A DNA stretch of 64,000 nucleotides from a phage. The DNA is taken from sequence record PZ452582.1, one strand, 5' to 3'. The position numbers were made by a program, and so were the translations under genes. How positions within the stretch are numbered: position 1 is the first letter of the stretch; every line of letters starts with the position of its first letter. The notes beneath the pieces were generated by a model. That model made no database searches, was not told where the DNA came from, and saw only the letters and a program-made list of their open reading frames with translations. Shown here piece after piece: positions 5,922 to 9,704 of this stretch.

Positions 5922-6402
5922 TTTTAAAAACTCGCTGGTATGATTTAGATGATGGGGATGATGGCATTTCAGTTGATAGAGTTGACTGGAATGGTTGTTC
6001 CGAAGATATGAAAAATTTGTTGATTAGGGAGTTTAGAATGGAATATCAAGCAGCTAAGCCATCTATTATAACAGATGATAAATTCGTGTGTATTCATAAT
6101 GGTCGTGCTAAGTTAACGAACGCTGATTGGTTCACAGATAAAATTATGATTCTGTGGTATATTATTAGTCTTCCTGTGACATCATTCGTATTTTACTTTT
6201 TTATAAAAAATCCAATGGACAGAATAGGAGATTGGATTCTTTTAACCATACTTGTTAATATTTTTACAGCAGCAATATTATCAGGAATATGGTGCATATT
6301 CATTGAAATGCCATGGCGTTTACGCAGACAGCAAAAGATTTTTGATGAAAAGAAATACGCTCAAAATTTAAATAACTTTATCACTGAATGCAGGAAATTA
6401 AA

Positions 6403-6406
<4 letters not shown>
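5918..6406 (+). CDS. membrane protein (162 aa), paralog-like
   Basis: TM segments; C-terminal NNFITECRKLK; ATGA overlap with upstream gene. Confidence 0.55.
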
Positions 6407-7375
<969 letters not shown>

Positions 7376-7380
7376 AGTTG

Positions 7381-7409
7381 TTTACTTTCTCCTAGAATTG
7401 TGATAGTAT
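7381..7409 (+). promoter_or_regulatory. early promoter (TTTACT-17-TAGTAT)
   Basis: GTTTAC motif upstream of denV. Confidence 0.55.
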
Positions 7410-7434
7410 ATTCACAGTTACTTGGAGGGATAAA

Positions 7435-7851
7435 ATGACTCGTATTAATTTGACTTTAGTATCTGAACTTGCTGATCAACATTTAATCGCAGAATACCGT
7501 GAATTGCCACGTGTTTTTGGTATAGTTCGTAAGCATGTGGCAAATGGTAAGCGCGTTAAAGATTTTAAAATATCTTCTAAATTTATTTTAGGTTCTGGTC
7601 ATGTTACTTTCTTTTACGATAAGTTAGAATTTTTGCGAAAGCGTCAATCGGACATTATAACGGAATGCTTAAAACGCGGGTTCAGTATAAAAGATACTGA
7701 AGTTCCTGACATCAGCGATATTCCAGTAGAATGGAAAAATGATTATAATCCATGCAAATCAGCTATTAAATTGAGTCAACAACGACTTGATGAAAAAATT
7801 TTAATGAAACCACATTGGTATAAGTATTACGGTAAAAATATTTACATTTAA
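7435..7851 (+). CDS. denV: endonuclease V (pyrimidine dimer DNA glycosylase)
   Basis: 138 aa, strong similarity to recalled T4 EndoV ([17 protein letters not shown]...[10 protein letters not shown]). Confidence 0.95.
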
Positions 7852-7860
7852 AGGAAACAT

Positions 7861-8334
7861 ATGAAAACATATCAAGAATTTATCACTGAAGCAGCTATTA
7901 ATTCTCAAATTATTGCTGAATCTTTTACTGATCTTTTGAAATTTAAAAAAGGTCAAAAAATCACTGCTGTATTGGATGATGGTACAGAAGTTGAGATGGA
8001 TGTACAGGGATATAATTATGCAGTAGATGGAAAACTGTATAATAAATCTCATGCTAAATTTGATTCATTTGACGACTTTGTTAATACAGTTGAAGATGAA
8101 AAAACTCGTAGATCCATTGCAACTGGTGATGCTAAGGTTCTTATGGCACATGGTCATGAACGCATTCGCGCTAAACAGAATAAAATGGGTGAAGATAATT
8201 TTGCATTAGTTGGTTATCAATCTGGTAAACAAACTTATGGCTATCAACGTACTGCTACCATGTATAATAAAAATGGTAAAATTGCCTTTGTGAATAGTAA
8301 GGGTTCTATTCAGTACGTTAAATCGTTCAAATAA
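7861..8334 (+). CDS. internal protein with capsid targeting sequence (IPII/IPIII family)
   Basis: N-terminus MKTYQEFITEA matches T4 internal-protein CTS; sits at the IP locus next to denV. Confidence 0.7.
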   Translation: MKTYQEFITEAAINSQIIAESFTDLLKFKKGQKITAVLDDGTEVEMDVQGYNYAVDGKLYNKSHAKFDSFDDFVNTVEDEKTRRSIATGDAKVLMAHGHERIRAKQNKMGEDNFALVGYQSGKQTYGYQRTATMYNKNGKIAFVNSKGSIQYVKSFK

Positions 8335-8468
8335 TATGGGAACAGCCTGGACCTCATTTGAGGTATTCCCGCCAACCTGTGATAAGGTCGAGCCAAAGCG
8401 CGGTAATGGGTAATGCAGGAATGGACAATTCATGCGCCACGGAATGGCCCAAATTTAGAGAGAATAAA

Positions 8469-9008
8469 ATGAGAACATTTTTAACTGGTCCTTATCTATC
8501 CCTGATGAATGCTTTTACACACCATTCTGACGCTAGAGTAGAAGAAATTTGTAAAAACGAATATATCCCGCCATTTGAAGAATTACTTAAACAGTACTGC
8601 ACACTTCGTATAGATGGTGGACGTCAATCCGGTAAATCAATTGCTGTGACTAACTTTGCTGCTAATTGGTTGTATGATGGCGGAACAGTTATTGTTCTTT
8701 CTAATACTTCAGCTTACGCTAAAATTTCTGCAAATAACATTAAAAAGGAATTTTCGCGTTATTCTAATGATGATATGCGTTTTCGTTTATTTACTGATTC
8801 TGTGCGCAGTTTTATTGGTAATAAAGGAAGCAAGTTCAGAGGTTTATCGCTTTCGCGAATTTTGTATATAATTGATGAGCCTGTCAAATCTCCTGATATG
8901 GATAAGATTTATAGCGTCCATATTGACACTGTACACTACTGCTGTAATAGTAAATGTTGCATTGGTGGTATTACTCGTCCACAGTTTTTCGTAATCGGAA
9001 TGCAATAA
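8469..9008 (+). CDS. hypothetical P-loop protein (179 aa)
   Basis: Walker A-like GGRQSGKS and Walker B-like LYIIDEP; track ORF extends upstream from TTG 8358 through a GC-rich leader. Confidence 0.5.
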   Translation: MRTFLTGPYLSLMNAFTHHSDARVEEICKNEYIPPFEELLKQYCTLRIDGGRQSGKSIAVTNFAANWLYDGGTVIVLSNTSAYAKISANNIKKEFSRYSNDDMRFRLFTDSVRSFIGNKGSKFRGLSLSRILYIIDEPVKSPDMDKIYSVHIDTVHYCCNSKCCIGGITRPQFFVIGMQ

Positions 9009-9334
9009 TGACAGACACACAGCTTTTCGAATATCTCTATTTTTCGCCAAAAACTATTAAAAATAAATTGGTAAATCATTTTGAAATTTTGGCAAATAAC
9101 AACATTTTAAGCGAATTTTATCCCAAGCAATACAAATTACAAAAAGGCGTATTCAAAGGATGCAGAGTTTTGTGCACTGCTCCTAACGCGCAGTTAATGA
9201 ATAAAATTCCATATTTTACCATGGAATTTATTGATGGACCTTTTAAAGGACTAATCACCCAAAGTTTAATGGCATATGATTCTGAGCCATTTTTAATTAA
9301 AGAACAATCTTGGATAAATTTATTTTCTAATTGA
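9008..9334 (+). CDS. hypothetical protein (108 aa)
   Basis: ATG overlaps upstream stop (TAATG); track ORF started earlier at a non-ATG codon. Confidence 0.5.
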
Positions 9335-9341
9335 GGTTTAT

Positions 9342-9704
9342 ATGAAAGCATATCAAATTCTTGAAGGCACACATAAAGGTACTATTTATTTTGAAGATGG
9401 TATTCAAGCACGAATTATTGTCTCTAAAACCTTTAAAGAGGACTCTTTTGTAGACCCGGAAATTTTCTACGGTTTGCATGCCCGTGAAATTGAAATTGAA
9501 ACACAACCTACAGTTAAAATTGAAGGTGGTCAACACCTGAACGTTAACGTTCTGCGTCGTGAAACTCTGGAAGATGCAGTTAAGCATCCGGAAAAATATC
9601 CGCAGCTGACCATCCGTGTATCCGGTTATGCAGTTCGCTTTAACTCTCTGACTCCGGAACAGCAGCGCGACGTTATCGCTCGTACCTTTACTGAGAGTTT
9701 GTAA
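9342..9704 (+). CDS. autonomous glycyl-radical cofactor, GrcA/YfiD-like (T4 Y06I-like)
   Basis: C-terminal 63 aa match recalled E. coli GrcA incl. RVSGYAVRF glycyl-radical motif; SD gagg. Confidence 0.85.

Follow-up and report, generated by a model that had tools for sequence, protein, structure and literature searches.

The window discussed here, the whole stretch of 64,000 nucleotides (nt) that was analyzed from sequence record PZ452582.1, is part of a Tequatrovirus (T4-like) genome in the orientation opposite to the T4 map. Between a gene for an internal virion protein, which ends at 8334, and the ATG at 8469 of a homologue of the T4 gene vs.8 lies a gap of 134 nt, and this gap holds a conserved structured RNA element, which starts at 8338, 4 nt past the stop codon of the internal-protein gene. 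The two genes, the element and its parts, all on the plus strand, are listed here, with R1 standing for the covariance model of the element and class B for one of the groups of related phages described below.

7861-8334, plus strand: internal virion protein with the capsid-targeting sequence (CTS) MKTYQEFITEA (Pfam DUF7412, E 6e-96; phrog_3155, internal virion protein)
8338-8450, plus strand: structured non-coding RNA, 113 nt, whole match of R1
8338-8370, plus strand: domain 1, in which stem P1 encloses an internal loop and hairpin P2
8338-8342 (GGGAA) with 8366-8370 (UUCCC), plus strand: stem P1, matched in the R1 alignment with class-B AAAGG/CCUUU
8346-8349 (CCUG) with 8416-8419 (CAGG), plus strand: pseudoknot H1, found by homology and by eye
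8352-8355 (CCUC) with 8360-8363 (GAGG), plus strand: hairpin P2
8371-8411, plus strand: domain 2, a conserved three-way junction and the most conserved part
8371-8374 with 8407-8411, plus strand: stem X, which covaries
8375-8388, plus strand: hairpin P3, ACCU-GUGAUA-AGGU, almost invariant
8389-8391 (CGA) and 8402-8406 (GGUAA), plus strand: junction strands
8392-8401, plus strand: mini-hairpin P4
8415-8435, plus strand: domain 3 hairpin with GGACA in the loop, from the R1 alignment and the minimum-free-energy fold
8436-8448, plus strand: terminal hairpin P5, GCCA-CGGAA-UGGC, with GGA in the loop and CC after it; both sides change in 4 of 4 pairs, e.g. GGCA/UGCC in locus L027
8457-8462, plus strand: AGAGAG, resembling a Shine-Dalgarno (SD) sequence, before the vs.8 ATG at 8469-8471
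8469-9008, plus strand: vs.8 homologue, a predicted single-domain P-loop ATPase of 179 amino acids (aa)
8616-8639, plus strand: Walker A motif of Vs.8, GGRQSGKS
8862-8882, plus strand: Walker B motif of Vs.8, LYIIDEP

Pattern scans of viral and metagenomic collections yielded about 90 loci of the same family, which fall into five classes, and a coliphage adds a sixth type.

Class A: Tequatrovirus
Class B: Mosig-, Gapriver- and Teguna-phages and Klebsiella/Enterobacter T4-like phages
Class C: Vequintavirus
Class D: PsgM04F-like phages and uncultured 46-kb contigs
Class E: Vequintavirus-like contigs of 120-140 kb
Sixth type: a minimal 71-nt version in the 44.9-kb coliphage Ivi

The evidence for a conserved structured RNA comes from compensatory changes. 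R1 was built from 30 class-B T4-like sequences, with Tequatrovirus left out, and gives a single match in the 64-kb window (8338-8450, plus strand, 74.9 bits, E 1.1e-19); it also detects every other class, at 31-46 bits, and further copies of the core were not found in the window. In an unguided MAFFT alignment of the 30 class-B sequences (A1), which supports seven nested helices together with H1, paired cells reach 92.5% (85.7+-0.5 in shuffles) and covariation scores 0.173, compared with 0.053 in shuffles, none of which (0 of 500) attains the observed value, with slid controls at most 0.028. Ten pairs of this alignment carry double changes, and the central pairs of the class-B H1 (10-109, 11-108 and 12-107) form in every sequence, each of them with two to four pair types. 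The element is thus a conserved structured RNA in the sense that compensatory changes exceed controls in an alignment made without guidance by structure. Over the whole family (A5, fitted to R1; 93 matches, 81 distinct), the corresponding values are 94.8% paired cells against 81.9+-0.4, double changes in 19 of 31 pairs against 11.7+-1.4, and 51 extra pair types against 38.5+-2.3, each reached in 0 of 500 shuffles. A hand alignment of the common core over the five classes (A3) has double changes in all five pairs of P1 and all five of H1, with a covariation of 0.529 against 0.165. G-U pairs are frequent and are compatible with the plus strand only. Compensatory changes and strand-specific G-U pairs together argue for selection on RNA.

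At the center of the fold, the junction of domain 2 is nearly invariant over the family, with GURAHA in the P3 loop and with CNA and GGUAA as its joining strands. In H1, the internal loop of the 5' hairpin pairs with a stretch located 3' of the junction, so that the junction is clamped between these two parts, and the minimal unit of ~70 nt consists of P1, H1, X, P3 and P4. T4-like phages have an extra 3' part made of two hairpins with GGA in their loops. The first of these, domain 3, is held by the pairs G8415-C8435, C8416-G8434 and A8417-U8433 and by those from G8419-C8431 to U8422-A8428, and its outer helix, H2, covaries in the family alignment (helix 6). In class A, the 3' strand of H1 lies within the stem of domain 3, so that hairpin and pseudoknot would compete and the two folds may alternate. 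On our reading the element has two modules, a widely shared core RNA and a 3' part, specific to T4-like phages, that acts as the 5' untranslated region (UTR) of vs.8. Two likenesses are recorded as ideas: the GGA hairpins resemble CsrA sites (AUACAUGGAUGA, compared with RUACARGGAUGU, the SELEX consensus), and the P3 loop CUGUAAA resembles a tRNA-Tyr anticodon loop or a TGT substrate.

The segment had first drawn attention through its base composition. The original prediction described a leader of unusually high guanine-plus-cytosine (GC) content, in frame from a TTG, that looked like imported sequence in front of a P-loop protein, and it held that no second CTS gene adjoins the internal-protein gene at 7861-8334; none does in this window. 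The composition is as anomalous as had been claimed, with a GC of 0.481 over 8335-8469 where the window averages 0.341 (sd 0.050, 135-nt windows), the 98.9th percentile, and of 0.535 in the core at 8350-8450, the 99.8th percentile, so the leader lies outside the normal range of this genome. Among non-overlapping 135-nt windows, only four in the tRNA cluster, one beside RNAC (2351-2485) and one within the GrcA gene rank above it. The published probe for T4 RNAC (PMC9697503) has an exact match at 2266-2323 on the plus strand, downstream of tRNA-Arg, and RNAD presumably lies beside it; the window's other GC peaks, with those of this region at 2144-2485 and 2660-2794, are put down to these RNAs together with the tRNAs. 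The high GC of the segment is attributed in the same way to base-paired RNA. As a separate observation, the 3' part of the GrcA/vs.6 gene (9552-9686, glycyl-radical motif RVSGYAVRF) equals the RNA genes with a GC of 0.52, so that the GC peaks of the genome are not exclusively RNA.

For a host origin, no similarity was found. A sensitive blastn search of the segment against 5,426 complete Escherichia coli genomes gave no match at E<=1, and scanning 185,579 bacterial and archaeal genomes for the exact core pattern was equally without result. The sole "plasmid" match, a 137.5-kb record, looks like a Vequintavirus genome. The core is common to unrelated phages, so exchange from phage to phage is possible and import from a host is not indicated. 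Of the earlier interpretation, the real P-loop protein and the anomalous segment at the edge of a variable internal-protein locus have stood, and the imported host DNA and the translated leader, discussed below, have not.

Among phages, the RNA is distributed more widely than the gene behind it. By blastn, the segment is kept upstream of vs.8 in ~850 phage records, T4 included; homologues of vs.8 were found by tblastn in T4-like phages only (1,010 records). The ~40-nt core, CCAACCUGURAUAAGGUCGAGCCNAAGYGCGGUAAUGGG, is 90-95% identical in Vequintaviruses and Pseudomonas phage PsgM04F, and the identity of domain 2 is 90-100% in Vequintavirus, PsgM04F and Ivi. Since vs.8 is restricted to T4-like phages and the core occurs elsewhere too, the RNA core has spread wider than the gene. 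In Vequintaviruses and PsgM04F, the core occupies unannotated gaps in or beside tRNA clusters, on the tRNA strand, and tRNA genes are found near 22 of the 26 non-T4 loci (same strand and no more than ~0.6 kb away in those checked individually). A sigma-70-like promoter is located 3' of the RNA in Vequintavirus, class E and Ivi. Two other sets of matches were assigned differently from their labels or first appearance: the "Campylobacter phage" matches (~143 kb and ~59 kb) were taken as Vequintavirus-like and not T4-like, from their rank with a Vequintavirus-derived query and the 143-kb size, and EC.W2-9 (46 kb), tried as a new phage class, is a partial Tequatrovirus assembly instead.

Several features of the non-T4 loci were seen alongside the core. 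In class D, the core is part of a longer structure, whose outer stems are GUUGUGA/UCACAAC and GUGUUCUU/AAGAGCAC (PsgM04F, L004 1872-2366; also L064, L071 and L081), modules of the form ..UCCGUUGUGAYGAAAGCAAA.. recur in the contigs, and the 500-nt gap between tRNA-Thr and tRNA-Gly of PsgM04F is annotated with small opposite-strand open reading frames (ORFs) only; class D loci may hold larger or additional RNA genes. The tRNA clusters of Vequintavirus contain a tRNA-like gene of 98-99 nt with a four-base anticodon, atcc (ARAGORN), and 35.5 bits to the Rfam tRNA model, which could be an intron-containing or frameshift-type tRNA. It was found at the following places.

L003 3082-3180: 98-99-nt tRNA-like gene
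L049 1714-1812: 98-99-nt tRNA-like gene
L067 2501-2599: 98-99-nt tRNA-like gene
L087 3782-3880: 98-99-nt tRNA-like gene

In Ivi (L097 2053-2160), a promoter-like TTGACA-17-GATACT stands directly 3' of the core and is followed by ~60 nt with the anti-SD-like CACCUCCU, closed by a hairpin and a run of nine T; this stretch may be a second tiny RNA gene.

Within the T4-like phages, the locus has been rearranged in several ways. In Tequatro-, Mosig-, Gapriver-, Teguna- and Klebsiella T4-like phages, vs.8 is the gene directly behind the element, and in some T4-likes (L028 type) the RNA stands upstream of an internal-protein gene instead. Klebsiella phage K65_evo6 (L014) has two copies that flank an internal-protein gene (70-211 and 609-738), one a full class-B RNA (157.7 bits) and the other a hybrid with an A-type 5' half and a B-type 3' half (69.4 bits). 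Tandem divergent copies are present in L041, L047 and L090, with covariation in P4 (GCC/GGC, GUC/GAC, GAGAC/GUCUC). The RNA may be a marker of recombination borders in the variable internal-protein locus. In Shigella phage Shf125875 (L018 544-672), the 5' two-thirds of the RNA are replaced by a T4 early-type promoter (GTTTAC...TAGTAT), behind which the 3' hairpins and vs.8 are retained. By this natural deletion, the core is dispensable for viability, at least in that phage.

Comparison with known RNAs did not place the element. Rfam 15 gave no match for 8335-8469 at E<=10; the whole window, at gathering thresholds, gave tRNAs only, and so did the homologous Vequintavirus and Pseudomonas-phage loci. 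ARAGORN found no tRNA at the element, the tRNA model RF00005 no match at E<=10, and no CCA follows the 3' strand. Likenesses seen by eye to the hammerhead, twister, hepatitis delta virus (HDV) ribozyme, RNase P, 5S, signal recognition particle RNA and the 530 loop of 16S, and to the L11-binding region of 23S (with a GUAAUA hexaloop in common), were short similarities that had no model support and were rejected. Literature searches found no description of the RNA at 8338-8450. With neither a family match nor a description in the literature, it is treated as a new RNA family of undefined class, which may nevertheless stand nameless in large catalogues of candidate viral RNAs (PMC10690425).

Two groups of RNAs come closest in character. 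RNAC and RNAD (species 1 and 2) are, like the element, phage-encoded, GC-rich, structured and without an Rfam family, and are tied to the tRNA cluster; they lie at another locus and have no detectable relationship to the element (R1 matches 8338-8450 only), which unlike them is common to non-T4 phages. The tRNA-like structures (TLS) of plant viruses, with their pseudoknotted acceptor arm, and the bacterial YrlA Y RNAs are alike in topology only: the core of the element is tRNA-sized (~70 nt) and has tRNA neighbors, and its pseudoknot could stack on a hairpin stem, but it has no CCA end, no T-arm consensus and no match to a tRNA or Y RNA model.

Altogether, the best explanation, which we hold to be probable if only by a modest measure, is that 8338-8450 on the plus strand is a compact pseudoknotted RNA of ~113 nt and a stable module, neither a coding leader nor host DNA. 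Such a module would be functional in its own right, like the RNAs of tRNA clusters, with the invariant junction as a putative binding or active surface for a factor conserved over enterobacteria and Pseudomonas. It would arise from transcripts that run through the locus, and it would probably be trimmed in the manner of the tRNA-cluster RNAs. In T4-like phages, the module would be fused to the 5' UTR of vs.8, formed by the T4-like-specific 3' hairpins, and through the overlap of the H1 3' strand with the hairpin (class A) its folding may also influence translation of vs.8. A more specific proposal, tentative and somewhat short of an even chance, is a new class of trans-acting phage RNA, found in T4 and in several unrelated virulent phages that infect enterobacteria and Pseudomonas, in which a tRNA-sized pseudoknot-clamped junction binds, decoys or acts on a machine conserved in hosts, such as that of tRNA processing or modification, the translation apparatus or a tRNA-directed defense nuclease, and is in addition wired to Vs.8 expression in T4-likes.

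Several points weigh against the account of a stable RNA module. Single-sequence folding is no better than in shuffles (z -0.23 on the plus strand, -1.25 on the minus strand), and the shuffle statistics are inflated by the kinship of the sequences. The alignments A5, model-fitted, and A3, hand-made, both lean to structure, which leaves A1 as the unguided one. In Tequatrovirus, H1 has 3-4 bp, overlaps the 3' hairpin and may not form. The Ivi RNA is flanked by two hairpin-plus-T-run terminators, which were found by eye and are not listed by the scanner. The discrete stable RNA species is itself one that we infer from sequence, and its partner and activity are putative. Finally, the near-constant place directly before vs.8 in T4-like phages also fits a purely cis role.

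Other explanations account for parts of the same evidence. It has been assumed in annotation that the segment encodes an N-terminal extension of Vs.8, of which three forms are in question. The T4 RefSeq protein has 219 aa (NC_000866 64253-64912; L095 2754-3413, minus strand) and starts inside the RNA element, so that the R1 match in T4 (64819-64938, complementary strand) is mostly covered by annotated vs.8; the TTG at 8358, named in the original prediction, is indeed in frame with vs.8 and opens a 216-aa ORF here; and the in-frame ATG at 8421, used by many gene callers, gives 195 aa, the representative form for 1,051 called proteins that cluster together. From this TTG the frame is open both here and in T4, but its openness is not conserved in relatives: across the element it is open in 3 sequence types (T4, in two records; this window; L022) among 46 distinct T4-like loci, and in most of these the frame is closed by a stop 0-23 codons before the conserved ATG. 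From nearly identical DNA, T4 and the window translate the 3' part of the extension in different frames (...KYRNGQFMRHGMAQTYREE vs ...NAGMDNSCATEWPKFRENK), substitutions keep base pairs and not codons, and protein conservation starts, in all homologues, exactly at M(R/K)TFLT..YL.LM.AF, that is, at ATG 8469. A translated extension is accordingly very improbable, the claim of a leader translated from the TTG does not hold, and with the conserved start at 8469 many records appear to carry a wrong gene model of vs.8. An element that acts at the DNA level, either as a recombination anchor at the border of a hypervariable locus or as a homing or packaging signal, would be consistent with a conserved edge of a variable locus, with the duplicate copies that flank the internal-protein gene in Klebsiella phage K65 and with a core common to unrelated phages; together with imported host DNA it is nonetheless judged quite improbable, a little less so than the extension, as the compensatory changes and strand-specific G-U pairs point to selection on RNA and similarity is absent from E. 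coli and the 185,579 genomes.

A purely cis-acting 5' leader deserves more weight, although we regard it as unlikely. On this explanation, the RNA would be a translational operator or a riboswitch-like control of vs.8, through a ligand, through Vs.8 or through a switch between H1 and the 3' hairpin. T4 uses RNA operators on its mRNAs, the gene 32 pseudoknot among them, and such operators travel with their own gene and bind its product. Like them, the element is structured, contains a pseudoknot and forms a 5' leader just before an SD sequence: in the T4-like groups named above it immediately precedes vs.8, its T4-like-specific 3' hairpins end ~7 nt before the SD sequence, and in class A the overlap of the H1 3' strand with the hairpin stem makes two exclusive folds possible. 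However, the core is larger than these operators and its conservation far exceeds that of vs.8, and Vequintavirus, PsgM04F-like and Ivi-like phages have it with no vs.8. The 5'-UTR position expected of a riboswitch or cis leader is found in most T4-likes but not in Vequintavirus and class E, where a promoter follows, nor in Ivi, where a promoter and a terminator come before the next gene. Moreover, in some T4-likes the internal-protein gene and not vs.8 is downstream, Shf125875 has vs.8 without the core, and no expression platform of either kind, anti-SD or terminator, was detected (7300-9500 holds no terminator-like site). Less probable again, and in our view improbable, is a self-cleaving or processing RNA, that is, an HDV-like ribozyme or a tRNA-like RNase P substrate that cuts polycistronic transcripts at tRNA clusters and at the boundary of the internal-protein gene and vs.8. 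HDV-like theta ribozymes adjoining phage tRNAs have been described (PMC10879173), and the element shares with them a place among phage tRNA genes and, as we read it, the nested strand order P1a-H1a-(P2)-P1b-...-H1b; its minimal unit is also tRNA-sized. Its conservation centers, in contrast, on the junction, which would correspond to the dispensable P4 of HDV-like ribozymes, so that nucleotides are conserved where the ribozymes vary, and the P2 loop, the would-be catalytic L3, is variable and is lacking in class D. No Rfam ribozyme model, those of HDV type included, and no tRNA model matches, even at E<=10, and the lack of a CCA end and the silence of ARAGORN at the element speak against a tRNA-like substrate.

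The protein behind the RNA is of interest in its own right. The 179-aa protein with Walker A and Walker B motifs that the original prediction had described is present as ORF 8469-9008, and both motifs are conserved in 33 homologues. Vs.8 has the features of a P-loop (ASCE) NTPase, with Walker A GxxxxGK[ST], Walker B hhhhDE and a RecA-like alpha/beta fold, and AlphaFold models it with a predicted local distance difference test (pLDDT) of 85.6 when 33 homologues are supplied (pLDDT 50 with 13 sequences). Fold searches return only generic RecA-like ATPases, and on the predicted structure Vs.8 is a stand-alone RecA-like ATPase domain, closest to the DEAD-box RecA1 domain and the gp17 terminase ATPase. 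Profile searches find weak similarity to gp17 (E 0.02; phrog_2, E 3e-6). A large terminase combines the ATPase with a C-terminal RNase H-like nuclease domain in ~450-600 aa, and an SF1/SF2 helicase has two tandem RecA-like domains with motifs I-VI; compared with the T4 gp17 N-subdomain and DEAD-box RecA1, Vs.8 is without the nuclease domain and without a second RecA domain. As a large terminase subunit it was rejected on its 179 aa, single domain and Pfam Terminase_6N score (12.9 bits against a cut-off of 22), and as a helicase on an alignment confined to the RecA1-like domain (110-140 residues); a single-domain protein is neither. Vs.8 corresponds to PHROG 1488, listed as function unknown, and belongs to a small family, with only 41 clusters in a set of 1.84 billion representatives. 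The Pfam scan gave no family at its cut-off, and sequence searches of Pfam, PHROGs and PDB gave no function. In many GenBank records, homologues of vs.8, vs.7 and vs.3 are labeled "Endoribonuclease RegB" or "endoribonuclease". For Vs.8 this identity was rejected, with no RegB family among Pfam matches at E<=1, and the true regB is located further downstream in T4 and relatives; with the Pfam scan of vs.8 and vs.7 both free of a RegB match, the label looks like a propagated annotation error.

The remaining genes named around the locus are these.

759-1776: tRNA cluster, 11 tRNAs by ARAGORN
6388-6843: nudE
6881-7375: e
7435-7851: denV
9008-9334: vs.7 homologue
9342-9704: vs.6/GrcA homologue

An extra insertion of ~335 bp with a small ORF separates denV from the internal-protein gene in about half of the closest relatives, for example phage slur04 (L001 1562-1879, compared with ~7851-7861 in the window), a further sign of the plasticity of the locus.

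T4 is the reference phage, and this segment of its genome has so far been annotated as the N-terminus of a hypothetical protein. The novelty lies at the level of the RNA family, as we could not place the element in a known family or functional class. As a rule of practice, local GC peaks in AT-rich phage genomes flag RNA genes. If the interpretation is true, the gene model of vs.8 would be corrected in roughly a thousand genomes, and T4 would gain a third orphan stable RNA, with a fold supported by covariation and a simple genetic system. It would also point to a factor, of the host or of the phage, of such importance that a 40-nt core stays above 90% identity in unrelated phages.

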